This document shows positions 1 through 51,086 of a DNA stretch of 64,000 bases, in pieces. This DNA is from Candidatus Aenigmatarchaeota archaeon (lineage in GTDB: Archaea; Aenigmatarchaeota; Aenigmatarchaeia; CG10238-14), in assembly GCA_044343545.1 (NCBI GenBank), contig JAWBZR010000002.1:3522-67521 (forward strand), given 5' to 3'. The notes beneath the pieces were generated by a model. It was not told the DNA's origin. It did no database searches and worked only from the letters and a program-made list of their open reading frames with translations. A program made the position numbers and the translations under genes. The stretch's first letter is position 1; every line of letters starts with the position of its first letter.

Positions 1-435
1 CTTTATTTTAATGTTTTCAATTTTATTTTGCAATTCAATTATTCTTTTTTCCAATGAAGACATTTCTTTTGATAATTGGTTTCTATTCATTTTCCTTACG
101 TCAACAAGTTTCTTTGCTTTTTTTATGTTTACTTGATTTTTTGAAATTAACATTGCGCCGAAAAGAAACAAAACTATATATATGGTAGTAGAAACTAAAC
201 TTCCAAGAGATAGTATTATGGATGAAAAAGATGTTACTATACCCGCGACATAAGCAGCAATAGCAATGATGGTAGCGGCAGCAAATGCAAATATTTTTGG
301 AAATCTTATAAATGAAAAAAATCCAAAAGTCAAAACAAGCAACACTATTTCTGGAACTATAACAGCGTTAACAAAATCTTGATTTTGTGCTGAAACAATT
401 TTAATGAGCAGCAAAGCAAGTAAAAACCACTTCAT
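1..435 (-). CDS. Membrane protein, partial (runs off window start). N-terminal hydrophobic helices, then a Lys/Glu-rich coiled-coil-like tail.
   Basis: ATG at 433-435 on minus. No in-frame stop down to position 1. Two to three predicted TM helices in the translation. Confidence 0.3.
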   Translation of the reverse strand, partial: MKWFLLALLLIKIVSAQNQDFVNAVIVPEIVLLVLTFGFFSFIRFPKIFAFAAATIIAIAAYVAGIVTSFSSIILSLGSLVSTTIYIVLFLFGAMLISKNQVNIKKAKKLVDVRKMNRNQLSKEMSSLEKRIIELQNKIENIKIK

Positions 436-465
436 AATTAAAATAAATAGCAATTTTAAAAGAAA

Positions 466-849
466 TTATTTTTTCATTTTATTTTTCTTTCTGTGTAAGA
501 TTATTTGTCTAAGAGTTAGCACACCCTTATATTCCCCTTTTTTATTTACAACAGGAACTGTGAGATAATCTTTTTCTAACATTACTTTAGCTATTTCTTC
601 TATATCATCATTTTCTTTTGCACAAAAAACAGGCGAAGTCATAATATCTTTTGCAAAAGTTTTCTTAGGATCTTTACCCTTAGCCAAAACCCTTGAAACC
701 ATATCTCTCATTGTTATAATTCCCAAAACTCTTTTGTTTTTCAGAACTATGATGGATTTTGATGATCCCATTTTTTTTGCAACTTTAAAAACATCATCTT
801 TTTCATTTACTGTCTTTGTTTTTTCCAATTTAACTTCTTTAACTTTCAT
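466..849 (-). CDS. CBS-domain pair protein
   Basis: 127 aa with two CBS-like repeats (IITMRDMVSRVL..., DIMTSPVFCAKENDDIEEIAKVMLEKDYLTVPVV). Confidence 0.65.
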   Translation of the reverse strand: MKVKEVKLEKTKTVNEKDDVFKVAKKMGSSKSIIVLKNKRVLGIITMRDMVSRVLAKGKDPKKTFAKDIMTSPVFCAKENDDIEEIAKVMLEKDYLTVPVVNKKGEYKGVLTLRQIILHRKKNKMKK

Positions 850-888
850 AATTAAAGTAATATTAATTTTTAAATTTAAATTAATTTT

Positions 889-1389
889 ATGGCTTTTGAA
901 AATGCGAGAAGGATAGGAAACAGGGTATGGGAAGACAGAGGTTATTTAAGAAATTTACTAATGGAATTGTTATTCAAAGATCCCATAAGAATATTTGAAG
1001 GTATATTTAAAGGGGAAATAGAAAGAAACCCGTATTTTAGGAATGAAATAGAAAGAGTTGTAAAATCACATCGATATCAGTTGGATAAAGCAAGAGCCAC
1101 GGATTTGTATGATTTTACTGTCAGCGCAGCCCAATTGGCGAGTTTGCTTGCTAGTTGTGGAGTAGATTTTCCCGTTGAAAGAATCGCAGAAATAGTAGAA
1201 GCTATACCAAAAATACCTTATATAGTTGGTTATGGAAGAAGATATGGTGCATGGTATGGTTTGGCCTTAGCTATATATGAATTGTTGACATTGTTAGATC
1301 CAACAAACATCTTGGATATGTTACCCACATACACAATGGCAGAATTTTATATGATATACAGAGAGCTAAAAAGAAAAGCAAAATCATAA
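889..1389 (+). CDS. Hypothetical protein
   Basis: 166-aa ORF of non-low-complexity composition with no recognisable motif. Convergent with gatE. Confidence 0.3.
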   Translation: MAFENARRIGNRVWEDRGYLRNLLMELLFKDPIRIFEGIFKGEIERNPYFRNEIERVVKSHRYQLDKARATDLYDFTVSAAQLASLLASCGVDFPVERIAEIVEAIPKIPYIVGYGRRYGAWYGLALAIYELLTLLDPTNILDMLPTYTMAEFYMIYRELKRKAKS

Positions 1390-2880
1390 CATTTCTTGAA
1401 TTTTTTTCTTTACTATTTTGTTTACAGTACTGCCGTCTATTTTCCCTCTCACTTCTGACATGACCAAACCCATTAATATCTTTTCGGCATTTCCTGCTTT
1501 CAACTTTTCTTTATTTTCCTTTATTTTCTTTTCAATCACTTCTTCCAACTCTTCGATGCTTATGCTTTGCAAACCAAGAAGTTTTATTAGCTTTTCAACA
1601 TCCTTTTCTTTTGTTATGTTTTCAAGTAAAGCAGGTATAGCCTCTTTAGCAATTTTGCCGTTTTTGCAAGCTAACAACACATTTATTATGTCTTCATCTT
1701 CTATTTCATCAACGGCAACACCTTTTCTTGAAAGATCTTTCAGCGTGTTCGTTAATGTCGAGGCAGCAATCATTTTGTCCACGCCCATCTCCACTGCTTT
1801 TTCAAAAATTTGCCATTTTTCATTAACAAGCTGATTAGCTATTTCAGTTGGTAAATTGTAAATGTTAACATACCTTTCCAATTTTTTATTTAAACTTTCA
1901 GGCAAATTTTTTCTAATATTTTCTATCAAGCGTTTATCGACTATTATAGAAGGTATGTCAGTTTCAAGATACAATCTCGCGGATGTTGAAAGGGGGCGTA
2001 AAAAGATTGTCGTGCAATCCTCCCTTGCTAACCTGACGCTATTTTCAATCTTTTCACCTCTTTTTAAAGCTTCTAATTGTCTCTCAGCTTCTTTAATGAC
2101 GACATCTTTTATCTGGCCTAACCGTTGAACGTGCTTTATTTCTGTCCTCGCACCACCTTTTATTGATACATTCACGTCTTGCCTAACTACACCCAAACCT
2201 AATTTCACTCTTCCAGTGGATTTCAATATTTTTCCTATATTTTCCGCCGTTTCTAATGCTTGTTCTGGTGTTGTTATATCAGCCTTAGTGCTTATTTCAA
2301 TTTCGGGCATTCCAAGTCTATCGAGCCTGAAGACATGCCTTTCAGCATCAACTATTCTTGCAGAATCTTCCTCTAGGGAAATGGAGGATATACCTACCTT
2401 ACCAAGAGACGTGTCAACGAAACCATTTAATCCGATTATCATCGTCCTTTGAAATCCAGAAACATTAGACCCATCTATGATGATTTTACGCATCACAAAA
2501 ATTTCATCAACTATTTTTGCATTAAAAAGCTCTGAAATCATAAAAGCCGTTTCTAAAGCTTCTTGATTAGGCAAGTGTGGAGGTTCTTCATCTAATTCTA
2601 CCAAACAATTCGCATCATCAAAAAACTCGTAAACAATCTTTTTTTCTTTCATAGCTTCTTTTATTGCTGCAACGTCAATTTCGCCAAACTCGCTAAAAGA
2701 CGGATGCAAATATCTCTCTATTATTCTGTCAGGCTTTCTGTTAACCAGCTTGTTTGGGCAATTACAAAATAACTTTTTTTTCGTTGCCAACTCCCAATGA
2801 ATTTCCAAACCAACTTTCAAACCAATTTTTTGCCAATCCATATTTGAAAAATTATCAATCTTAAAAATTAAAAGCTTCAA
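1384..2880 (-). CDS. gatE: Glutamyl-tRNA(Gln) amidotransferase subunit E (GatE), short form
   Basis: N-terminus MDWQKIGLKVGLEIHWEL...KLFCNCP...CLVELDEEPPHLPNQEAL is GatE-specific. C-terminal YqeY/GatB tail domain present. 498 aa versus about 620 typical. Confidence 0.8.
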   Translation of the reverse strand: MKLLIFKIDNFSNMDWQKIGLKVGLEIHWELATKKKLFCNCPNKLVNRKPDRIIERYLHPSFSEFGEIDVAAIKEAMKEKKIVYEFFDDANCLVELDEEPPHLPNQEALETAFMISELFNAKIVDEIFVMRKIIIDGSNVSGFQRTMIIGLNGFVDTSLGKVGISSISLEEDSARIVDAERHVFRLDRLGMPEIEISTKADITTPEQALETAENIGKILKSTGRVKLGLGVVRQDVNVSIKGGARTEIKHVQRLGQIKDVVIKEAERQLEALKRGEKIENSVRLAREDCTTIFLRPLSTSARLYLETDIPSIIVDKRLIENIRKNLPESLNKKLERYVNIYNLPTEIANQLVNEKWQIFEKAVEMGVDKMIAASTLTNTLKDLSRKGVAVDEIEDEDIINVLLACKNGKIAKEAIPALLENITKEKDVEKLIKLLGLQSISIEELEEVIEKKIKENKEKLKAGNAEKILMGLVMSEVRGKIDGSTVNKIVKKKIQEML

Positions 2881-3045
2881 TTATATCTTTAATTTAGTCC
2901 TTCTCCAATTTCTTCTCAACAAACCGGCCCTTCTATTTCTTGCTCTTTTCAAGCCAAATTTTTTTATATCCACCCATCTTGGTGCTTGTTTCACTTTACT
3001 AGCTTTTATTTGTCTCAACTTTCTACTCAACATCTTTCTGCCCAT
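2881..3045 (-). CDS. rpl39e: Ribosomal protein L39e (ORF not in supplied track)
   Basis: 54-aa translation MGRKMLSRKLRQIKASKVKQAPRWVDIKKFGLKRARNRRAGLLRRNWRRTKLKI. The HWRRTKLK-type C-terminus is the L39e signature. ATG at 3043-3045 and TAA at 2881-2883. Confidence 0.6.
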   Translation of the reverse strand: MGRKMLSRKLRQIKASKVKQAPRWVDIKKFGLKRARNRRAGLLRRNWRRTKLKI

Positions 3046-3050
3046 TAATA

Positions 3051-3818
3051 TCACAACATCTTCCTAATTTCCTTCGCTTTTTTAATGGCCAAATCAATCA
3101 TATCATCAACATTTTTAATACTTAAAGCTTTTATTCCACCTTTCTGCATAGAGCAAATGTAATTATCTTCTCTAATCCCTATGCTCAGCCATGCATCAGC
3201 CACTTCTTCCTCTTCTCTATTCAAATCTATAAGATATTTATCCATAATTTTTGATATAGTTACGGTTATTGGTGTGTGTAAAATAGGCAATTTTCCCGAA
3301 TATTCGCCTCTAAATATCTTATCATTCTCGTATTTTGGTATTTTAGTATTCATTAACGCAGCAACCGATGCGAGAGACGAGGCATCGAAAAGGTTGCCGT
3401 CATGATTTATTATGTGTATATCAATATAAACACCCCAAACTTTTTGTCCTTCTACTATGCACAACTTTTCCAAATCAATACATTTAGATTCTCTTATTCC
3501 TCTATCAACAACTCTTGCAAGCTCCGTTGCATCTTCAGATGGAGGGCCAGGTAAAAATTCCGGATGAGCTATGGGTGCAAATTCTGCATGAGTTTTTAAA
3601 ACACCTTCATTCGGCATGTCAGGAAAGGGCGTTTCTATTTCCATTTTTATGCCAGCAATAACGTCAGTCTTTCCTATTTTAACCCTTGCCGAGCCTTCAG
3701 CTTTTTCGATAACATCTCTTTCTATCTCTATTTTTCTAAACTCGTCTAATTTTCTTCCATCTATTCTTTCATTTTTTTCTATCAATTTTAGGATATATTG
3801 AGATCGAAGCATAATCAC
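3051..3818 (-). CDS. rrp42: Exosome complex component Rrp42 (non-catalytic RNase PH-like)
   Basis: 255-aa RNase PH fold. Last gene of the Rrp4-Rrp41-Rrp42 triplet. Overlaps the rrp41 stop. Confidence 0.8.
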   Translation of the reverse strand: MIMLRSQYILKLIEKNERIDGRKLDEFRKIEIERDVIEKAEGSARVKIGKTDVIAGIKMEIETPFPDMPNEGVLKTHAEFAPIAHPEFLPGPPSEDATELARVVDRGIRESKCIDLEKLCIVEGQKVWGVYIDIHIINHDGNLFDASSLASVAALMNTKIPKYENDKIFRGEYSGKLPILHTPITVTISKIMDKYLIDLNREEEEVADAWLSIGIREDNYICSMQKGGIKALSIKNVDDMIDLAIKKAKEIRKML

Positions 3819-4531
3819 TCACTATACTTGTCTTTTAATGTTTTTATTTGCATCTTATACACTTCTTCTCCAGCCTTGAAGATTTCATTAATCAGCTTTT
3901 TTATTTCATCTTTTGTCAATTCACCATCCATTTGCAACAAAGTAATTTCTTTTTTGGTTGCCGTGAATGCAAGAGGCATGTCAGCTTCAGAATTGTTATC
4001 TTCCAAGCCATTTAAATCTAAAATTAGAGTATCGTTAATCTTACCGCCAGATAAAGCGACGACAAGATCTTTCATTGGAACCCCCGCATCGGCAAGTGCA
4101 AGAGAAACAGCATTGACACTTGTAACTCTTGTAGAACCATCTGCTTGCAATATTTCGATGAATATGTCGATTGTAGTTTTTGGATAATTTTCCAAGAAAA
4201 GTACAGGCTCTATAGCTTGCCTTATTACTTTCGATATTTCTATTTCCCTTCTCGTGGGACCTGGTTTTACACGCTCATCAGTAGAAAAAGGCGCCATGTT
4301 GTATCTACATTGCACTACTGCTCTATCGCTTTCTTGCAAGTGTTTCGGCAGCAACAACCTCGGACCATAGACGGCAGCAACAGCAATTGTTTTTCCGAAT
4401 CTCACCATAGCAGATCCATTTGCGTTTGGGATGACACCGATTTTCATTTCCATTTCCCTCAATTCCAAGGGTTTCCTTCCATCCAATCTTCTTCCGTTTT
4501 TTATGAGCTCCACGTCCTTTAATTTTGTCAA
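3815..4531 (-). CDS. rrp41: Exosome complex exonuclease Rrp41 (catalytic RNase PH-like)
   Basis: DGRKPLELREMEMKIGVIPNANGSAMVRFGKT phosphate/RNA-binding motifs. 238 aa. Confidence 0.85.
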   Translation of the reverse strand: MTKLKDVELIKNGRRLDGRKPLELREMEMKIGVIPNANGSAMVRFGKTIAVAAVYGPRLLLPKHLQESDRAVVQCRYNMAPFSTDERVKPGPTRREIEISKVIRQAIEPVLFLENYPKTTIDIFIEILQADGSTRVTSVNAVSLALADAGVPMKDLVVALSGGKINDTLILDLNGLEDNNSEADMPLAFTATKKEITLLQMDGELTKDEIKKLINEIFKAGEEVYKMQIKTLKDKYSE

Positions 4532-4537
4532 ATCGAA

Positions 4538-5209
4538 TCACCCTAACATCTTAGTAATTTCTTCGGTCAAACCATAGATGTGAGATTTTTCATCAATTCT
4601 TTTTATTGCCATAATAGCTTTGTCAATGTTTTCACCAGAAACCCAAACAACACCATTCTGCCCAACTCTTATCATGGTTTTTGTTTTTTCCTTTATCAAA
4701 TTTATCATGCTGCCCTCCTTTCCTATGAGTCTTGGCACCTTGCTTGGCGTGATGGTAACCAGAACACCACCTTTTAATTTCTTAAAGGCAGGACCTTTCA
4801 TAGTTAACTGTATATCACCTCTTTTTGCAGATAGTATTTGCGCATATATAACATCACCTTCATCATAGTATCTATTCAACAAAACCCTTTTGAGATCTAT
4901 GAATTCATCCACACCTTCGGATAATGATAAGAAAGAAAGCCAGGGAGATCTTATATCTACGATCCAACCAACCTTCTCAACTTCTATAACTATTCCTATA
5001 ACATGATCTCCTGGTTTTGGGACATAAACCCCAGAGAGTGGAATAACGGAAATATAGTTTCCGCTAACGGACAATATTCCAAGATATTTTGAAACTATGT
5101 TTCCCTTTTCATCTATGTAAGTTCCTGAGCTAGCTAAATATTCCTTGCTACTTCCCAAAACTCTACCTGGCCATGCTATTTCTCTGACGCCGCTATTTTC
5201 TTTACTCAT
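4538..5209 (-). CDS. rrp4: Exosome RNA-binding subunit Rrp4 (S1 + KH domains)
   Basis: 223 aa with N-terminal, S1 and KH architecture. Sits between SBDS and rrp41. Confidence 0.8.
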   Translation of the reverse strand: MSKENSGVREIAWPGRVLGSSKEYLASSGTYIDEKGNIVSKYLGILSVSGNYISVIPLSGVYVPKPGDHVIGIVIEVEKVGWIVDIRSPWLSFLSLSEGVDEFIDLKRVLLNRYYDEGDVIYAQILSAKRGDIQLTMKGPAFKKLKGGVLVTITPSKVPRLIGKEGSMINLIKEKTKTMIRVGQNGVVWVSGENIDKAIMAIKRIDEKSHIYGLTEEITKMLG

Positions 5210-5919
5210 ACATCTTCCCTTCTCAATATATCTGATTTAAAGTTTCCATGAGTAGCATCTCCAATGAATTTCAACAAATCCATTTGAACACCTGCAGGTA
5301 TGTTTGCAATCACTTGCAATGACCCGTCACTTTGCCACTTTTCTTCAAACTCCGGAACGAATCTTCTTATCGAGGAATATACCTTTCCAGCATACTGGGA
5401 AGGTATAGTTACTTGTATCAAAACTCTTTGCATTTTTATTGGAAGCAAACTTTTAATAGCTTTTATTACTCTATCCACTTGCGCTTCGGCATCTAAAAAA
5501 GGATCAATTTGCACGCCAGCCTGCTCCATAGCATTTATCAATCTGTTTGGTGGATGTGGAAGGTTCGTTTGAGGATTTATAGCTCTTTTTGATATTAATT
5601 CTGCTATTTGCGATTTCTTTTCCTCTATCATTTTCCTTCTTTGCTCTGTTGTTATTTGCATTTCTCCTTCAATCAAAATTTTTTTTATTATTTCATCGAT
5701 TTTGGTTGTTCCAAAACCTTTTTGAAGCTCGTCCATGGAAACCAAATCGCCTTTTCTCGCATCTCTGAAAACATTTTTCACCGCCACTATGTCTTCAATC
5801 TCTCCAATTTTCGTTTTTTTAAATTCATCAGCTTTGTATGGGTCTACGAGAATTTCGAAATTCAATCCACTCTTTTTTAACCTACATATAACAGCCTCAT
5901 CCACGCTAACCATAATCAA
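5206..5919 (-). CDS. sdo1: Ribosome maturation protein SBDS/Sdo1
   Basis: N-terminal FYSH-domain pattern (RLKKSGLNFEILVDP...VFRDARKGDL...GFGTTKIDEII). Conserved superoperon position. Confidence 0.75.
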   Translation of the reverse strand: MIMVSVDEAVICRLKKSGLNFEILVDPYKADEFKKTKIGEIEDIVAVKNVFRDARKGDLVSMDELQKGFGTTKIDEIIKKILIEGEMQITTEQRRKMIEEKKSQIAELISKRAINPQTNLPHPPNRLINAMEQAGVQIDPFLDAEAQVDRVIKAIKSLLPIKMQRVLIQVTIPSQYAGKVYSSIRRFVPEFEEKWQSDGSLQVIANIPAGVQMDLLKFIGDATHGNFKSDILRREDV

Positions 5920-5923
5920 CCAT

Positions 5924-6634
5924 CTATAGTAATTTTTTTATTTCATCATCAGTCAAAGTTGTAAAACCTTTATCGTCTCTTATGATTGCAACTTCGACAG
6001 AATCAGAATCTTTCACTTTTTCAGATTTTTTGATAGCTTCGATTATAATCTTCAAAGCATTCTTTTCATCCATATCATTCTTATATTTTTCTTTGAAAAT
6101 TTTGTTGGCTATCGGGGCACCTCTGCCGATGGAATAAGCCAACCATTCAAACAACATCCCGGAAGGATCTGATTCTATCAAATGAGGACCTGAATGGTCA
6201 ACACCGCCTATTAAGAAAGACACGCCAAATGGACGCAAGCCTGCATAAAGTGTTGAAATTTGCATCCTATCTCCTAAAACTTTTGATAATGACCAAACAT
6301 CTATCGGCTCTTCATATGTGATTCTGTGAATTTGAGCTTTTACTCTTAATAAGTTGACCAAAACTCTTGCATCTGCTAATAAACCTGAAGCAACAGTTCC
6401 TATGTGGTCATCCAATTTAAAAAGTTTTTCAGTACTTTTCGTTACGGCCAAATCCATCTGTTGCTTTACTGTTGCCAAAATTACACCATTCTTGAATGTT
6501 ATTCCAAGAGATGTAGTCCCTTTTTTAACAGCTTCTTTAGCATATTCTACCTGAAACAATCTACCGTCAGGGCTAAACACAGCTATAGTTCTATCATAAC
6601 CCATATATTCTGGTAAAACTGCCGGCATGACCAT
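5924..6634 (-). CDS. psmA: Proteasome subunit alpha
   Basis: YDRTIAVFSPDGRLFQVEYAKEAVKKGTTSLGI alpha-subunit N-terminal signature. 236 aa. Confidence 0.9.
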   Translation of the reverse strand: MVMPAVLPEYMGYDRTIAVFSPDGRLFQVEYAKEAVKKGTTSLGITFKNGVILATVKQQMDLAVTKSTEKLFKLDDHIGTVASGLLADARVLVNLLRVKAQIHRITYEEPIDVWSLSKVLGDRMQISTLYAGLRPFGVSFLIGGVDHSGPHLIESDPSGMLFEWLAYSIGRGAPIANKIFKEKYKNDMDEKNALKIIIEAIKKSEKVKDSDSVEVAIIRDDKGFTTLTDDEIKKLL

Positions 6635-6729
6635 CCCACCTCAATAGTAATGCTTAACTAATTATATGTATTGCAATTTTAAATTGTTTTGAATTTTTAA
6701 ATATTTGCCTTGTCAAGCAAAAATTCAAT

Positions 6730-7092
6730 TCATTTTTTACATCCTTTTATCGTCCCAGATACTTTGAGAATCTTCATGCAAACTCTGACATCACCCAATC
6801 TTGTTATTAAACCAAGCGATGCTATCGTCGAAGCAACGGATAGATGGTTGCATCTAATTATGCAGGTCTGCTCATCTTTATTCCATCTATCTTTCAATAA
6901 CCATACAGATGTTTTCGCCACACCATGTTCTCCCAAAAAATCAAGCATCGTATTCCAAATGGCGCTTTCCAAGTCAGAATATTCTATGGGTTCTTCAGAT
7001 ATAACTTTGAACAATACATATCTATGCTTCTCTCTCAGTGTGGGCGGAAGCACCTTTAGTTTCATAATTCCCTCACGCCTGGCATTATCCAT
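6730..7092 (-). CDS. rnp2: RNase P protein component Pop5 (Rnp2)
   Basis: LPPTLREKHRYVLFKVISE...LKVSGTIKGCKK matches the archaeal Pop5 pattern. Confidence 0.75.
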   Translation of the reverse strand: MDNARREGIMKLKVLPPTLREKHRYVLFKVISEEPIEYSDLESAIWNTMLDFLGEHGVAKTSVWLLKDRWNKDEQTCIIRCNHLSVASTIASLGLITRLGDVRVCMKILKVSGTIKGCKK

Positions 7093-34720: not shown

Positions 34721-34992
34721 TTTTTATCGCTCTCTTTGATTGCTAGTATGCTTACTGAAAAAGGCTTTCCGCAGACAAGACCCAAGTTAACGTTATCCCC
34801 TTCAAACTCCTTTACTTCTACTTTGGCAATTTTTGCGTTGTGAAGGATTTCTTGTTTTTTATCTTCAGGTAAGTTATTTGCAATTACAACCATATCTATT
34901 TTACCACTCTTTAAATTTTTCATAACTCTATTATAACCTAAAATGACTTGTTTGCTTTTTACCTTGTCTTGGATGAGTTTTACTAAATTCAT
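34717..34992 (-). CDS. rpl30e: Ribosomal protein L30e
   Basis: 91 aa. Conserved position between rpoA'' and nusA. Confidence 0.8.
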
Positions 34993-36116
34993 TCTTCACC
35001 AACCTTGCCTATTAATTCGAACATACCAGTGCCTACCGGTACTTGTTGGTTGATCATGACATTATCAAATATTCCTTCAAATTCGTCCACTTCATTTCTT
35101 ACCGAAGCTCTAACAAGATGCTTTATCGTTTCTTCGAAACCTGCTCTTGAAAGAACCGCTGATTGCGTACCAGCAACACCATATCTTCCTACAGGCCTCA
35201 CTTCTCCAGTAAAACACATTATATCCGCAACCAATGTGATATGCCTTTCATCAACATTCAACCCCTGCTGTTTCAAGGTATTGTTTATTTCCCTTATGAG
35301 AATAGTTCTTGCAGCTTCTATACCTAAAATCTTTTCAACTTCGTGAAAATTGTTTGAGTATGTTCTTGTGAAATCCACTTCTTCAAGCTGAAATATTTTT
35401 TCTAAGTTTGATCCAAGTGTTTTTACAACCCAATCGTTTCCTTCTTTTACAACAACAGCATTTTTCACATTTTCCACACCACTTACATACGAGGCGAGAA
35501 CCTTTCTTTTCAATTTTTCAAGTTCTTTTATCGATATGTCTTGCTTGGGCTCTATGGTGATGGAGTTAGTGTGCGGTTTGACTTGATATCCTTTCAAAAG
35601 TTTTTGCAACCTTTCCACTATTTCATCCATTTCCTCTTTTGTAATCTTGCCAAAGTTTATTTTTATTTTTTTGTTGGTAAGGTCAGTTGTAACTTCAGTT
35701 GCAAAGTATTTTACCTTTTTTTCTTTGATTTTTTTCGAAAATTCCTCAGCCGCTTCTTTTGTATTGTGTTTTGGTTTTAGATATATAGTCATCATCGGAG
35801 TAGTAGGTTCTTTCCTCGCATCGAATATTTCTATTAATCTTGGCAAACCTAAAGTGACTTGAATGCCGGCCGAAGCTGCAAAGTGATATGTACGCATTGT
35901 CATTTGCGTCGCAGGTTCGGAAATCGATTGAGCCACAAGGATTCCTATAGCTTCTCCAGGTTGGAACATATTTTTGTAATATTCTCTCTTTACTTCTTCT
36001 ATCAATTTTATTTGCTGCTCTTCATTAAGCTTTCTTTGAGTGATGACCCTTTCCACTTCTTCCTTGAGATTGGCAGGAAAATCATCCAAATAATCTTCTA
36101 GCAATTTTTTCGACAT
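34989..36116 (-). CDS. rpoA2: DNA-directed RNA polymerase subunit A''
   Basis: 375 aa with ...[31 protein letters not shown]... trigger-loop region. Confidence 0.9.
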
Positions 36117-39100
36117 TTATATCACCCTTTTGTATTCTAGACGGGTCTAACCCGTCTTCAGCGGGAACAAATTGGATAATTTTTTTCATCGAATCTCTTA
36201 CAGTTCCATCATATTCTACCTTTAAATCTTTTAATGCACCTATCAATCTTCTTTCCAAGTAACCACTGTGTCTTGTCTTTAAAGATTTATCCATAAGACC
36301 TTCTCTGCTATTCATTGCATCGAAGAAAAATTCAAAAGGCGTTAATCCTGTTTTATAACCATGTCTAACAAAACCTTTGGATTCCAAACTTATATCATTT
36401 CTTTCAAAATGAGTGAATGTTCTCTTATAATAACCTATTCTTATTCTTTCTCCTCTCAAAGTTTCTTGACCTAAACAAGCGATGCATTGAACCATGTTAA
36501 CAAGACTGCCTCTTGCTCCGCTTTTGGCCATTATATATACAGAATTTTCTTGAATGTTTTTCGCAACTAAGTTTGTGATTTCATTAAGCGTGTCCGCTAA
36601 TTTTATTTTTATCAAAGTTTCCAGGGTTTCTCTCGGCGTCTTACCGACAACTCCTTTTATGTTACCTTTTTTGAATTCCTTAATCAATTCATTGACTTCA
36701 TCCTTTACTTTGTCAAGTTGATTGTTAATTTTTTCAATAATTTTTGGAGATACATCATAATCTGATATGGCTATGCTAAATCCATACCTTGTTAAAAATT
36801 CGAGCGAAAGTTTAGTGATATTGAATAAAAACTTCTTAGCATACTCACCTCCATAAACTTTTTCTATTTCATCAAGTATTTTGCCTTTGAAAGCACCAAC
36901 ACCACTTTCATCAATAAAACCTTCAAGCTCACCATTTTTTATGACAATTTTTGTATCGCCTTTAGTATATTCAAAGTTGAAATCTTTTGGCAAGAACAAG
37001 CTGAATATTTCTTGACCCGTAAATTCCTTCTTTTCCGGTACCTCTATTTCAAGATCACATGCTTTTACAAGCGATATCACATCCTTTCTTGGTAATTTCA
37101 TCTTTGTCGTCAAAATATAAAGCCCGGTTATATGATCATTTATAGCACCTATTATTACACTGCTAAACCTCGGACTTCTAAACTGTGTGGATACACGAGT
37201 GAGCAAGTTTGTTTCAACTTGAGCCTCTTTTGTTTGAGGTATGTGCAAATTCATTTCGTCTCCGTCAAAATCAGCATTATATGGTGGAGCAACCGTTAAA
37301 TTAAGTCTAAAAGTATTCCACGGCATAACTCTAACTCTATGTCCCATCATACTCATTCTATGCAAAGACGGCTGCCTGTTAAAGATGGACCAATCACCAT
37401 CTTCTATTTGTTTTTCAACAATATAGCCAGGTTCCAACTCTTTTATTATATCAGCCTTATTTTGCTCGGTAACTTTTTTTCTCCTTCCATCAGGTCTATT
37501 CACATAGTTTATTGTCGGCCATTCAGGATATCTTTCTATCATTTGTTTTATTTTTTCGATGTTTCTCTCGTTAACAACAACAGGTATTGTTAATTCTTTC
37601 GCTATTGATAGTGGAACGCCAACTTCATCTATATCCAAGAACGGGTCAGGACTTATGACAGTCCTTGCAGAATAGTTAACTCTTTTACCTATGAGGTTAC
37701 CTCTAAACCTACCTTCTTTCGTCTTCAATCTTTGTGCGAGTGTCTTTAATATTCTTCCAGATCTATGCCTTGCTGGAGGCACGCCACTAATTTCATTATT
37801 CATATAAGTTGCAACATGGTATTGCAACAATTCCCACAAATCTTGAATAATAAAGTCAGGAGCACCCAAGTCAATATTTTCTCTCAATCTCTTGTTTATT
37901 CTCACAATATCAACAAGTTTATGAGTTAGGTCATCTTCAGATCTTTCACCCGTTTCCAAGGTTATGGAAGGTCTCACCGTGACTGGTGGTATTGGTAAGA
38001 TAGTGAGCACGAAAACTTCTGGTCTCACACCTTTTATGCCAAGATATTGCAATTCTGAATCAGGTATTTTTTCCAATCTTTCTCTTATTTGCACAGGCGT
38101 TAAAACATCTTCATCTTCTTGATAAGTCGTTGGTTTAATATACTTTATTTTCTTTTGTTTTTCGTTGCAATAAGGACATGTAGATTTTACTAACGTTTTT
38201 AGCTTCTTTAATGATTTTTTCTTTTTGAGTTTTTCAGCATCTTCTGGTGTAATTAAAACCTTTCCACATTTTCTGCAAGTATATCTCAATATATTGTAAA
38301 TAAGTTTTGCATAGTTTACGTGGATTACGGGCTTTGTTAACTCTAAATGACCAAAATGACCTCTACATTCACCAACCGTGCCACCACACGTTCTACATCT
38401 TAAACCAGGATCTATAACGCCTAATCTAGGATCCATTAAACCTCCTTCTATCGGGTAACCTTCTTGATCATAAAGTTCTGTTTTGCTAATCTTGGATGCG
38501 GACATCTTCCTTATCATTTCAGGTGTCAATACGCTGAATGTTATTTTATCAATTATATTGAGATCTTCGTTGATTGTAAGTTTCGGATATATAACCATAC
38601 TTTTTAGCTCGTCCAATAGCAACTTGAAGGCGTAAGACATATCGACATCTATGATTTTTGAGCCTCCACACATGGGGCAGAATTTTTTGTTTTTCACCCT
38701 ATCGTTTATCGCTTCTATTCCACATTCTTTGCATATTGGTATTGAAATCTTGTCAGAATCGAACCTTTCTTTAAGCAAAAGGGAGGCGCCATGCGCAATT
38801 AAGCAGTCTTTTTCCATTTCCCCTAATCTCAATCCACCCATTTTTGATTTTCCTTCTGTTGGTTGTTTCGTCAACAATGCTACAGGACCTTTAGATCTAG
38901 CGTACATTTTATTTGAAACCAGGTGGTCAAGTTTTTGATAAAATATACTTCCTATGAGTATCTTGTTCATCAATTTTTGTCCGGTTCTACCGTCGAACAT
39001 AACTTCTTTACCATCATCGTCATAACCAAACTTCTTTAGCATTTCCCTTATTTGCTTTTCTTCTGGAGGATGAAATGGAGGGCTATATATCGGTTCGCCA

Positions 39101-40365
39101 GAAAGAGCGGCAACTTTAGCAGAAATAATTTCTAGAAGTTGACCAATAGTCATTCTTGATGGAATGCCGTGAGGATTAAACACCAAGTCAGGTACTATGC
39201 CTTCTTCGGTGAATGGCAAATCTTCTTCACCTATTATCAATCCAACTACGCCTTTTTGTCCGTGTCTACTCGCAAATTTGTCTCCCACTTCGGGAATCTT
39301 TAAATCTCTTATAACTACCTTCACAAGTTTGTTACCTTCAGAACTTTCTGTGATGAATACCCTATCAACTATCGCATTTTCGGAATGTTTCAATCTTACG
39401 GAAGTTTCTCTTATGTTCTCAAGGCTTGTTGTGAATTGATCTAATCCGCCTAAAAATCTCAAAGGTGAAGTTTTTCCTATCAAAACATCATCTTTCTTCA
39501 CATTAGTTTCCGGATTAACTATGCCATCTTCTGGTAAATGTTTATAAGCATCTTCACCTGCATATCCCCTTATTCCTGGTTGCGGTATTCCTATTACATC
39601 TTCTTGTCCACCTAAATATCTCTTTTCTTCAGCTTCATAAACCCTAAACATGTATGACCAGAACAAACCTCTTTCTATTGAGGATTTGTTTAGCACAATG
39701 GCATCTTCCATGTTGTATCCTAAAAACGACATGACAGCAATGGTAACGTTACATCCACCAGGATGCTCTTTATCGTTGATAATTTCGTTCATATGTGTCT
39801 TTACCAGCGGAACTTGAGGGTAAATCATTATGTTTGATTTCGTGTCAACTCTTAGAGGATAGTTTGAAGCATATATTCCTATGGATTGTCCTATCATCTT
39901 ACCTCCGAAATTAACCCTATCACCTCTGTTAAATTCTGCAAAAGGAACAAGAGAAGTTGCTATGCCAAATATGATAGTGGGATCTAGCTCCAAATGCGTG
40001 TGTTTGGGTGTAAGATCTTTTGGTGTTAACGCAACAAGAGCATTTTCTTCTTCTGTCGCATCCAAGTATTCTATAACACCTTGTTTTATTAGGTCACTCC
40101 ACTTAATTTTTCCTGCTTCCAAGGCTTTTATATGCTCTTCCGTTAATTTAGGTTTTCCCTTTTCTACAACTATTAATGGCCTTCTCGCCCTTCCAGGTTC
40201 AGTAGAAATCATGACTATATCAAAATGATCCAAGTAAGAGACGTTAAGCTGATTCGAAAGCAAACCTTTCCTTCTCTTTTCTCTCAACATTTCTACAAAT
40301 TTTTTTGCATCCTTTACCTTACCGACATATTTTCCGTCCAAAAACACATCAACCATTTTTCTCAA
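36082..40365 (-). CDS. rpoB1-rpoA1: DNA-directed RNA polymerase subunit B' (C-terminal half of split RpoB) fused in frame to subunit A' (1427-aa single ORF)
   Basis: Residues 1-600 carry RpoB C-terminal motifs ([15 protein letters not shown], zinc ribbon CKECG...CPMCG). Residues 603-1427 carry RpoA' motifs (clamp Zn CRTCGG...[22 protein letters not shown]). No stop or start codon at the junction ...[30 protein letters not shown]... at about 38540-38575. Confidence 0.85.
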
Positions 40366-41863
40366 CCTCTTTCAACACAGTATCCTCTATTATTTTGAAC
40401 TCTTTTTCAGTCACTCCAGAAGTAACTTGGGTCATTATCGCTAGATACTTTCTCAACCCAATCGTTGCACCTTCTGGTGTTTGTGACGGGTCAATCTTGC
40501 CCCATTGTGTTGGATGCAAAATTCTTGCTTCGAAATGTTCTTGAGTGGATGTAAGGGGTGACAATACATTTCTCATGTGTGAAAGTGTCTTTACAAAACT
40601 ACCTCTTTCCAACCTTTGTGACACGCCAGTCCTACCACCAACCCAAGAGCCTATTGCTATCGCTGAATTTACTTGGTTCGTTAAAACACTCGATTCGACG
40701 ATGGATTGCAAGGGCGGAAACCTCCCTCTTTTAGTAAGTTTTTGATAATTGTATGTTATTCTCGTTATAAGACCCCATTTACCAAGGAGTATCGACCTAA
40801 ACAATATTTCCAGCAGATCTCCGGACAATCTCAATCTTTTGTTAGAATAATGATCCAAATCATCTTTTGGTGTTTTTTTGAGATGATATTTTATAATCCT
40901 TTCACACGCTTTTATCAAGTAGAAAGCTTTTGTTAAACGATCCTTTTTTTCTTGACCTAAATGAGGAAGCAAATATTTGTCTAGTAACTTGTTGACCCTA
41001 TCTTGTCTATATTCTTTTTGAACAATTTTCAAGAAATCAGCAATCTCTTCCATAGCCTCCTTGCTTGTAGCTGCTTGTGTCTCAAACAAGTTTGGATAAA
41101 ACTCTTGCTGAACTTCAGGATCTTCGGATAAGCTCATAATTATGTCTCTATCCGTTTCTAAACCCAAAGCACGAATTAATATTATTATCGGCATTTTGTT
41201 AACATTCGCAAAACTTATTCTTATTATGCCGTCACCTTTCCTTTCTATTATGTGTCTTTGTATATATCCATCTTTTTCAGAATGAATTCTTGCCGTTTCC
41301 GTCACGTTGGGCGTGGATGACTTTTCTACTATTATTTTGTTTGGTGCTATTTCTTCTATTAACACAAGCACTCTTTCCGTTCCGTTTATGATAAAATAAC
41401 CGCCAGGGTCATCAGGGTCTTCGCCTGCCTTTATCAATTCGTCTCTATCCATTTTGGATAAAGGACAAATTTTTGATTTTAACATGATGGGAAGATCACC
41501 AAAGTTAACCATTACCGGTTCGCTTTCTATGTCGTTTAGGGTTGGTGTCATTTCAAGATACATTGGCGCAGAATACGTGAGGTTTCTTATCCTCGCTTCC
41601 AATGGCAATATAGGTCTTTCCGAGCCATCAGCTTCTTTTATCCAAGGGCCCCATCTATCATTTCCCAAAGGCTTGCCTATCTTAAATTTTCCTAATTTTA
41701 TTCTAAAATCTCCCAAGTCAGGAACTTCTGGTCTTATTTCTTTTATTTGTTTTATTATTGCAGGAATCCTGTTTTCAATGAAATCATTGTATGAATCTAT
41801 TTGAAATTTAACCAAACCTTCTTCCTTGACGAATGATTTTAACATCGTCATATATTCTTTCAT
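40349..41863 (-). CDS. rpoB2: DNA-directed RNA polymerase subunit B'' (N-terminal half of split RpoB)
   Basis: 504 aa with RpoB N-terminal lobe/protrusion patterns. Overlaps the rpoB' start by 17 nt. Confidence 0.9.
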   Translation of the reverse strand: MKEYMTMLKSFVKEEGLVKFQIDSYNDFIENRIPAIIKQIKEIRPEVPDLGDFRIKLGKFKIGKPLGNDRWGPWIKEADGSERPILPLEARIRNLTYSAPMYLEMTPTLNDIESEPVMVNFGDLPIMLKSKICPLSKMDRDELIKAGEDPDDPGGYFIINGTERVLVLIEEIAPNKIIVEKSSTPNVTETARIHSEKDGYIQRHIIERKGDGIIRISFANVNKMPIIILIRALGLETDRDIIMSLSEDPEVQQEFYPNLFETQAATSKEAMEEIADFLKIVQKEYRQDRVNKLLDKYLLPHLGQEKKDRLTKAFYLIKACERIIKYHLKKTPKDDLDHYSNKRLRLSGDLLEILFRSILLGKWGLITRITYNYQKLTKRGRFPPLQSIVESSVLTNQVNSAIAIGSWVGGRTGVSQRLERGSFVKTLSHMRNVLSPLTSTQEHFEARILHPTQWGKIDPSQTPEGATIGLRKYLAIMTQVTSGVTEKEFKIIEDTVLKEVEKNG

Positions 41864-41865
41864 TC

Positions 41866-42120
41866 CTATTCCTCCACAACGATTCTATAATACACAACTT
41901 CTTTTGCAATGCTACTCTTTCTTATTATTTTTATTAAATCTCCGGGTTTCGCTCCTAGCGCCTTCACGACAGGGTCAGTTGATTTTATTTGGGGAAGTTG
42001 ATTCAATTTTGTTATCTTATATTTTTCCAAGATTTTTTGCTTTTCTTCTTCAGAAACAATGTAATGTTTTGGCACCAATTCATGCTCTAAGATGTTAATA
42101 TTGGTTTCTTCTTTCAACAC
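41866..42120 (-). CDS. rpoH: DNA-directed RNA polymerase subunit H
   Basis: 84 aa. [19 protein letters not shown]...[11 protein letters not shown]. First gene of the rpo cluster. Confidence 0.8.
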
Positions 42121-42121
42121 A

Positions 42122-42225
42122 TCACCCTTTACGCTCTGGCCGGGATTTGAACCCGGGTCACGGGAGTTCTGCTTATTATTGACAGTCCCGTATGATTAGC
42201 CTCAAGGATGATTGGGCCAGCTACA
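42122..42225 (-). tRNA. tRNA-Asp (anticodon GUC) with two introns: a canonical 13-nt intron at 37/38 and a 16-nt insertion in the D-arm
   Basis: Reverse complement: GCTCTGG TA GTGTAGCTGGCC[CAATCATCCTTGAGGC]TAATCAT ACGGGA CTGTCA[ATAATAAGCAGAA]C TCCCG TGAC CCGGGTTCAAATCCCGG CCAGAGC G. The spliced form closely matches archaeal tRNA-Asp as recalled for Methanocaldococcus. Confidence 0.75.
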
Positions 42226-42332
42226 CTACCAGAGCAATTAAGATTTTTTTTATTAAAAGAATTTATAAAAATTTTTGCTGGGTTGGCAGTATAGCTATTT
42301 TTGATCAATAACACATCACCGTGAGTGAATGA

Positions 42333-42448
<116 letters not shown>

Positions 42449-42833: not shown

Positions 42834-42948
42834 ATCCCCCCGGCCGGATTTGAACCAGCAACCCTTCGGTTTCTGACGAGCATACGCCGGTGACGAATGC
42901 TTTTAGCAAACGTCTACAGCCGAATGCTCTACCGTTGAGCTACGGGGG
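42834..42948 (-). tRNA. tRNA-Tyr (anticodon GUA) with an intron of about 43 nt at the canonical position
   Basis: Reverse complement: CCCCCCG TA GCTC AACGGTA GAGC A TTCGG CTGTAG[A CGTTTGCTAAAAGCATTCGTCACCGGCGTATGCTCGTCAGAA]A CCGAA GGGTT GCTGG TTCAAAT CCGGC CGGGGGG A. The C1:G72 pair is the archaeal Tyr identity element. Confidence 0.8.
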
Positions 42949-43000
42949 GTCATAATTACAATAATCAATTTAATTAAAATATTTTAACCATATAATTTTT

Positions 43001-50995: not shown

Positions 50996-51086
50996 AGCCC
51001 CGTCGTCTAGATGGCTTTGCCAGGATAACGGTCAAGGATAGCGGGCTTTGGACCCGTTGACAGCGGTTCGAATCCGCTCGGGGCTA
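50996..51086 (+). tRNA. tRNA-Gln (anticodon UUG) with an insertion (intron) of about 19 nt in the D-arm
   Basis: AGCCCCG TC GTCT AGATGGCTTTGCCAGGATAACGGTCAA GGAT A GCGGG CTTTGGA CCCGT TGAC AGCGG TTCGAAT CCGCT CGGGGCT A. The A1:U72 pair and 3' half match archaeal tRNA-Gln. The 5' half is 19 nt too long. Confidence 0.7.

Follow-up and report, generated by a model that had tools for sequence, protein, structure and literature searches.

A recurrent in-frame fusion of the RNA polymerase genes rpoB′ and rpoA′ in Aenigmatarchaeota

The large subunits of archaeal RNA polymerase (RNAP) are known as split, not joined. A 64,000-nucleotide (nt) stretch of DNA from a Candidatus Aenigmatarchaeota archaeon (assembly GCA_044343545.1, contig JAWBZR010000002.1, positions 3,522 to 67,521 of the forward strand), the whole of which is called the window here, carries a locus at which the genes for subunits B′ and A′ run together in one reading frame. 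This raises the question of whether the genes are genuinely fused and, if so, whether the locus yields one polypeptide or two.

A single reading frame for B′ and A′

The open reading frame (ORF) listing of the window contains one uninterrupted ORF at 36082-40365, encoding 1427 amino acids (aa) if begun at the TTG at 40365. The ORF lies on the minus strand, a point on which a preliminary description of this DNA was silent. The ATG at 40356 is the more likely start, because it is preceded by GAGG 10 nt upstream and because the gene then has an 8-nt overlap with the end of rpoB″, whose stop codon occupies 40349-40351. The length of 1427 aa given in the preliminary description thus holds from the TTG, and the likelier start gives 1424 aa and 161.4 kDa. 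The features discussed in this section are as follows.

36082..40356, minus strand: fused rpoB′-rpoA′ gene, a continuous ORF with Rpb2 domains 4-7 and Rpb1 domains 1-5 (1424 aa, 161 kDa)
38563..40356, minus strand: B′ moiety, aa 1-598, with Rpb2 domains 4-7; its end point was set by alignment with relatives whose B′ ends in K(E/D)(E/D)-stop
36082..38556, minus strand: A′ moiety, aa 601-1424, with Rpb1 domains 1-5 (of domain 5, the N-terminal part only) and GHFGH
38536..38583, minus strand: junction peptide, aa 592-607 (16 residues), set by codon alignment with separate-gene loci (L069-L071) and by gapless alignment to 3QQC_A, chain A of Protein Data Bank (PDB) entry 3QQC

Pfam placed Rpb2 domains 4-7 (PF04566, PF04567, PF00562 and PF04560) in this order at aa 7-597, with E values as low as 2e-127, and Rpb1 domains 1-5, with very strong scores, at aa 604-1405, beginning six residues past the Rpb2 part. 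The A′ portion comprises PF04997, PF00623, PF04983 and PF05000, plus positions 1-66 of PF04998. The catalytic-centre motif of B′ (GDKF.SRHGQKG type) is present at aa 358 (39250-39285), and its clamp C-terminal zinc motif (ICKECG...FCPMCGG, ahead of SYAFKLL) is intact; the A′ part has its N-terminal zinc motifs (CRTCGG at aa 654 and GHFGH at aa 666) and the Mg-binding NADFDGDE at aa 1027 (37255-37278). The domain order and the motif positions bear out the earlier description of a single in-frame B′-A′ fusion that keeps its catalytic motifs and zinc clamps and is not a pseudogene, and rpoB is indeed still split, rpoB″ being a separate ORF at 40349-41863. The 1424-aa protein is an exact match to NCBI MFH8080429.1 and MFH8092428.1, where it is labelled 'MAG: DNA-directed RNA polymerase subunit A' [Candidatus Aenigmatarchaeota archaeon]' (MAG, metagenome-assembled genome).

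At the junction, the codons read GAA GAT CTC AAT ATA ATT GAT AAA (E-D-L-N-I-I-D-K). L599 and N600 take the place of the former stop codon and spacer, and the ATA of I601 (38554-38556) aligns with the A′ ATG of relatives with separate genes. Reading through 38536-38583 confirmed that it holds no stop codon and no ATG, GTG or TTG, as had been described. It also has no Shine-Dalgarno (SD) motif (GGTG or GAGG), unlike the other genes of the operon, which have GGTGAT or GGAGG before their starts, and no long homopolymer.

A fusion of this kind could be mimicked by an assembly or sequencing artefact, a 1-nt indel that deleted the B′ stop and ran two normal genes together. In close relatives whose genes are separate, the stop and start lie 1-2 nt apart and in different frames, and indels are possible in MAG contigs. 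The preliminary description had drawn attention to the alternative frame, in which the junction reads ATA TAA TTG ATA, and had supposed that a single-nucleotide indel could restore separate genes. These codons are present out of frame, but the shifted frame stops again three codons on (TTG ATA AAA TAA), and therefore one indel could not yield two normal genes; moreover, the stop and start codons are absent from the window junction altogether and not just displaced into another frame. A Logan contig, assembled independently from SRR21619491 by a second assembler, encodes the same protein with junction DNA identical to that of the window. Ten further clade members keep the fused frame as well, as do about 100 other loci drawn from unrelated projects, a closed chromosome among them. 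The artefact is effectively refuted, and we give it almost no credence. An exact-match scan of Joint Genome Institute (JGI) metagenome contigs with the 39-nt junction gave no match.

Programmed frameshifting to the out-of-frame TAA was also considered and was rejected, since it is the conserved Asp-Lys codons (GAT AAA) that give rise to this TAA, and A′ would be left with no start all the same.

Fused and separate genes among relatives

The Genome Taxonomy Database (GTDB), with one genome per species, was scanned with a 300-aa junction segment as query, which gave 80 loci, almost all labelled Aenigmatarchaeota; a protein-guided scan of JGI metagenome contigs likewise gave 80. Loci were called from tblastn anchors on the B′ C-terminal and A′ N-terminal pieces, with the B′ frame read to its first stop. 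The genes were fused in 39 of the 80 GTDB loci (separate in 41) and in 66 of the 80 JGI loci, fractions that overstate the true frequency because both scans favour single-segment matches. Nearly all fused loci from either source are Aenigmatarchaeota, and they span many projects and assemblers, with the closed chromosome CP066684.1 (L058) among them. The fused state is thus common and reproducible in Aenigmatarchaeota, and the earlier statement that archaeal rpo operons always have rpoB and rpoA′ as separate genes fails for this phylum, in which fusion is recurrent. The genes are separate in all outgroup loci, labelled Parvarchaeota, Pacearchaeota, Nanohalarchaeota, Micrarchaeota and Methanobacterium.

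Each of the seven GTDB species closest to the window (L002-L008), with 78-89% identity across the junction query, is fused and has the same junction length and a linker related to that of the window (DE[ED][LM]x[IT]IDK). Three of the fused JGI loci (L082-L084) also belong to the clade of the window. L002-L008 and L082-L084 show numerous synonymous and conservative substitutions within and near the junction, yet the fused frame is kept in every one, so that the window is not a sole exception. Counting clusters was not feasible in a search of 50%-identity representatives, where a single sequence (P0122) represents the whole split-B fused group and the unsplit-B fusions have no representatives of their own.

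A neighbour-joining tree of 73 loci, built from ~1320 aligned B′ and A′ positions, contains 13 separate all-fused groups and requires at least 13 changes by Fitch parsimony, a count that is approximate because the tree is distance-based and derived from the protein itself. In this tree, fused L010 is nested inside a group with separate-gene L075 and L068, fused L050 and L017 are grouped with separate-gene L076, and fused L058 and L055 are sister to separate-gene L032, L056 and L029, each with a bootstrap of 100/100.

Comparison of junctions between fused and separate loci revealed the corresponding nucleotide changes. In the separate genes of L069-L071, B′ ends in K-E-(D/E)-stop and is followed, after 1 nt, by ATG ATA GAT AAA (M-I-D-K) in the next frame, with GAGG at SD distance; relative to these loci, the window has a sense codon for the stop, has gained 2 nt, and has ATA at the old start position. 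L010 differs from its sisters L075 and L068 (TGA-AT-ATG) by the changes TGA>ACG and ATG>ACG and by an insertion of 1 nt. One clade has an unsplit rpoB; its separate-gene species have glycine, stop and methionine in one frame (GGT TAA ATG ATA), and their fused relatives have GGT AGA AAA ATA, which corresponds to a stop-to-sense change and then loss of the ATG. Precursor states are therefore visible in sister species both in other frames (TGA-A-ATG, TGA-AT-ATG) and in frame (TAA ATG). ATG, GTG and TTG are all missing from the junction in the window and in 17 of the 39 fused GTDB loci.

Abutting genes, separated as stop, 0-2 nt and start, were the source of the fusions. By one route, a 1-2 nt indel together with loss of the stop codon joins rpoB′ and rpoA′; by the other, open where stop and ATG already share a frame, a single stop-to-sense substitution suffices. 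The A′ start codon and its SD motif, now useless, decayed afterwards. Several origins of the fusion are supported independently by the distinct junction sequences and the two mutational routes. Where sisters keep KEE-stop/ATG, fusion seems more plausible than re-fission as the direction of change, because fission would have to recreate the stop, the start and the SD motif.

Other arrangements were observed among the loci and library sequences. In the Aenigmatarchaeota loci L028, L030, L034, L035, L038, L051, L054 and L057 (positions ~1-6800 of each, all from GTDB), rpoB is unsplit (~1080-1100 aa) and fused to A′. The A′ frame of L042 (labelled Nanohalarchaeota) and of L065 and L067 (labelled Pacearchaeota) is open for >1128 aa, to the end of the locus, which suggests that A is unsplit in these DPANN lineages, with A′-A″ as one gene. 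L023 (CAYRSM010000021.1) has an in-frame stop ~296 aa upstream of the B′ C-terminus, either an extra split of B′ or a sequencing error. L009 (JAEOTG010000167.1, labelled Heimdallarchaeota) and L079 (DAIDAX010000005.1, labelled bacterium) have rpo genes of the Aenigmatarchaeota type, L009 grouping with L015 at a bootstrap of 100/100; probable causes are wrong binning or wrong labels for these contigs. P0001 (332 aa, ENA, from a 94-kb contig), which comes from a more distantly related archaeon, shows B-A′ read-through with a ~30-aa linker (FPRIIAERQRNRGYHPPKTRLCNMVEINKVLDKLKF); its C-terminal part looks frameshifted, which limits its reliability accordingly. Two entries of the representative library, P0132 (2214 aa) and P0196 (1665 aa, truncated), are divergent proteins that carry complete Rpb2 and then Rpb1 domains in one chain at 37% identity to the query, P0132 having the A″-equivalent domain 5 as well; their origin is possibly viral, plasmid or eukaryote-associated.

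One chain or two

Taken with the conservation of the fused frame, the ORF makes it highly probable, in our judgement, that the locus is a genuine, evolutionarily maintained rpoB′-rpoA′ fusion making one B′-A′ chain in an otherwise normal RNAP of this DPANN archaeon. Ribosomes starting at B′ would read on into A′ and produce one polypeptide of ~161 kDa, to which the second-largest subunit contributes its C-terminal half and the largest its N-terminal two thirds. This polypeptide would assemble with the separate B″, A″ and small subunits into an ordinary RNAP. In the clamp, the B C-terminal strand lies beside the A′ N-terminal strand; the two extra residues would form a hairpin turn, and the fusion would be tolerated because of this adjacency.

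A structural precedent bears on this arrangement. Of the sequences in the PDB, 3QQC chain A matches the junction segment best, and the alignment has no gap through the junction (KLNLSEGGKVIGSIEF). 3QQC is a P. furiosus clamp construct, engineered by joining B 1053-1115, A′ 3-318 and an A″ fragment (334-371) through short linkers; it folded, was soluble, bound Spt4/5 stoichiometrically and crystallised (Martinez-Rucobo et al. 2011, PMC3094117). Its sequence (P0034) has 'GG' as the B-to-A′ linker. Natural archaeal B chains end 1-3 residues beyond the aligned region, and natural A′ chains start 4-6 residues before it. The gapless alignment and these chain ends together place the B and A′ termini adjacent to each other, and the window junction does not exceed the summed length of the two free ends.

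The principal remaining alternative is that the gene is fused and the proteins are separate, with A′ produced also or only on its own, through non-canonical internal initiation at ATA/ATT, initiation at a downstream TTG or ATG, or cleavage of the linker. In-frame ATG or TTG codons are kept in the junctions of L005-L008, L002, L004 and others, and internal initiation is conceivable in those species. The window junction, however, offers neither ATG, GTG nor TTG and no SD-like motif, in an operon whose other genes have a clear SD, and the next in-frame starts (TTG at L611 and ATG at M615, in SVLTPEM) would cut off the conserved N-terminal strand. With no stop to end B′ translation, the fused chain would be made even if internal initiation occurred, and a linker of ~2 residues in a predicted tight hairpin would be a poor protease substrate. 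We therefore regard separate proteins as unlikely, and the single B′-A′ chain would be expected to stay uncleaved in the enzyme.

Several points nevertheless weigh against a maintained single chain. Cleavage, or weak initiation at ATA/ATT, is compatible with the sequence, and a single sample may be the source of both NCBI records and of the Logan contig. An AlphaFold2 model of aa 538-940, made with a shallow alignment, was poor overall, with a mean predicted local distance difference test score (pLDDT) of 62 and a template modelling (TM) score of ~0.25 to 3QQC. The junction itself reached a pLDDT of 77-84, as two adjacent strands and a short turn, a local confidence that carries little weight, and a Foldseek search with the model ranked 3QQC_A first at the same low TM of ~0.25. 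The linker, put at 10-15 residues in the preliminary description, is ~2 residues long. Owing to the poor model, the structural argument rests on the 3QQC precedent. Finally, the genome was viewed through the 64-kb window, and a second, unfused copy of rpoA′ or rpoB′ may exist elsewhere; the fused ORF would then be a decaying pseudogene or a redundant copy, with the working genes at another site. Against this stand the full-length Pfam domains with very strong scores, the intact catalytic and zinc motifs, the place of the gene in the canonical rpoH-B″-B′-A′-A″-L30e-NusA-S12-S7-EF2 operon, and strong cross-species conservation (78-96% identity in flanking pieces). DPANN genomes, furthermore, are small and have single-copy RNAP genes. 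A pseudogene or redundant copy is in our view exceedingly improbable.

Any benefit of the B′-A′ fusion, as opposed to neutral drift, may lie in a fixed 1:1 stoichiometry or easier clamp assembly. A bolder reading is that Aenigmatarchaeota repeatedly and independently tethered their catalytic subunits (as B′-A′ of ~161 kDa, or as B-A′ of ~1900 aa where B is unsplit) and that this is the first covalent B-A′ linkage of natural origin to be described from Archaea, acting as a single chain and fixed by selection and not drift. In that case, selection would favour an assured stoichiometry, or clamp assembly that needs no chaperone, in episymbionts with reduced genomes. We offer this reading tentatively, leaning slightly against it in its full extent.

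Known fusions and genomic context

The closest functional analogue is the fusion of rpoB and rpoC (β::β′) known in Helicobacteraceae and Wolbachia (Zakharova et al. 1999, J Bacteriol 181:3857; Lane & Darst 2010; as cited in PMC7483510). As in the window, the C-terminus of the second-largest subunit is joined in frame to the N-terminus of the largest, the two genes lie next to each other in one orientation and abut or overlap, and the fusion is lineage-wide in an enzyme that is presumably fully functional. The archaeal fusion differs in that it belongs to another domain of life and has an independent origin, in that the B′ half alone is fused (with boundaries B″ / B′-A′ / A″), in its ~13 changes within one phylum in place of a single fixation in a family, and in its linker of ~2 residues. 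In the PDB the protein matches archaeal and Pol II subunits best, which gives no sign of common descent with the bacterial fusion, and the separate-gene sisters within the phylum indicate that the fusions arose locally and not from a bacterial lineage. The unsplit-B fusions are predicted to form a single B-A′ chain of ~1900 aa, a nearer analogue of the Helicobacter β::β′ subunit.

The P. furiosus 'rClamp' (3QQC) likewise joins the B C-terminus to the A′ N-terminus through a two-residue linker, with equal junction length, but it is artificial and contains clamp fragments only, being neither a natural gene nor a complete subunit. Single chains resembling Rpb2::Rpb1 are encoded by yeast cytoplasmic killer plasmids (pGKL2 Orf6), and a β::β′-like protein occurs in C. 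glutamicum (PMC2919709). These also have the second-largest subunit moiety followed by the largest, but they are drastically reduced, divergent and non-canonical, whereas the window protein is a full-length, canonical archaeal pair. The window protein would work like the Helicobacter/Wolbachia and killer-plasmid chains and is not related to them by descent. A further comparison is with canonical archaeal rpoB′ and rpoA′, separate and translationally coupled, as in the Aenigmatarchaeota loci L068-L081. These share the operon, the domains and 73-75% identity over the junction query with the window, but between their genes they have a stop codon, then either a spacer of 0-2 nt or a short overlap, and an ATG with GAGG upstream of it, none of which the window has.

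In the full-text literature we found no description of an archaeal B-A′ fusion, subscription-only literature lying outside this coverage, and neither PMC13257274 (on archaeal RNAP evolution) nor a 2026 bioRxiv preprint (on DPANN insertions) mentions one. The archaeal B′-A′ fusion is thus apparently undescribed, and its precedent is the rpoB-rpoC fusion of Helicobacter and Wolbachia, to whose β::β′ tether it is an archaeal parallel. A chimera across the B/A boundary, in the arrangement B″ / B′-A′ / A″, means that textbook schemes understate how plastic the subunit boundaries of the core enzyme are, although no new transcription mechanism is implied and the fusion is not mechanistically radical. 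The many probable origins within one phylum, together with visible precursors, provide a natural experiment on the fusion of coupled genes and the decay of start signals. For Aenigmatarchaeota systematics the B′-A′ fusion is a discrete character, and for structural work it makes a natural single-chain clamp available. It also carries a caveat for annotation and marker-gene use, in that fused proteins are now labelled only 'subunit A'' or 'subunit B, partial'.

The surrounding operon is canonical, with rpoH, rpoB″, the fusion, rpoA″, L30e, NusA, S12, S7 and EF-2 in this order, all on the minus strand. The other RNAP genes are listed below.

41866..42120, minus strand: rpoH (Rpo5), first gene of the operon; Pfam RNA_pol_Rpb5_C, E = 1e-31; GGTGAT ahead of its GTG start
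40349..41863, minus strand: rpoB″, the N-terminal half of split B, a separate gene of 504 aa; Pfam Rpb2 domains 1-3
34989..36116, minus strand: rpoA″, a separate gene of 375 aa; Pfam Rpb1 domain 5 (PF04998 positions 66-264); GGGTGAT 4 nt before its ATG

The fusion ORF ends 35 nt past the rpoA″ ATG (36082-36116, minus strand), so that the A′ C-terminus and the first 11 codons of A″ are encoded by the same DNA in different frames. Directly upstream of the rpoH operon lies a 5S rRNA gene (42334-42448, minus strand, 87 bits), and a 61-codon ORF with a GGTGAT-GTG start (42129-42314) is located between the two. An Rfam tRNA match of 115 nt at 42835-42949 (minus strand), where ARAGORN reported none, is probably an intron-containing tRNA, and a marginal tRNA match was found at 51013-51086 (plus strand).

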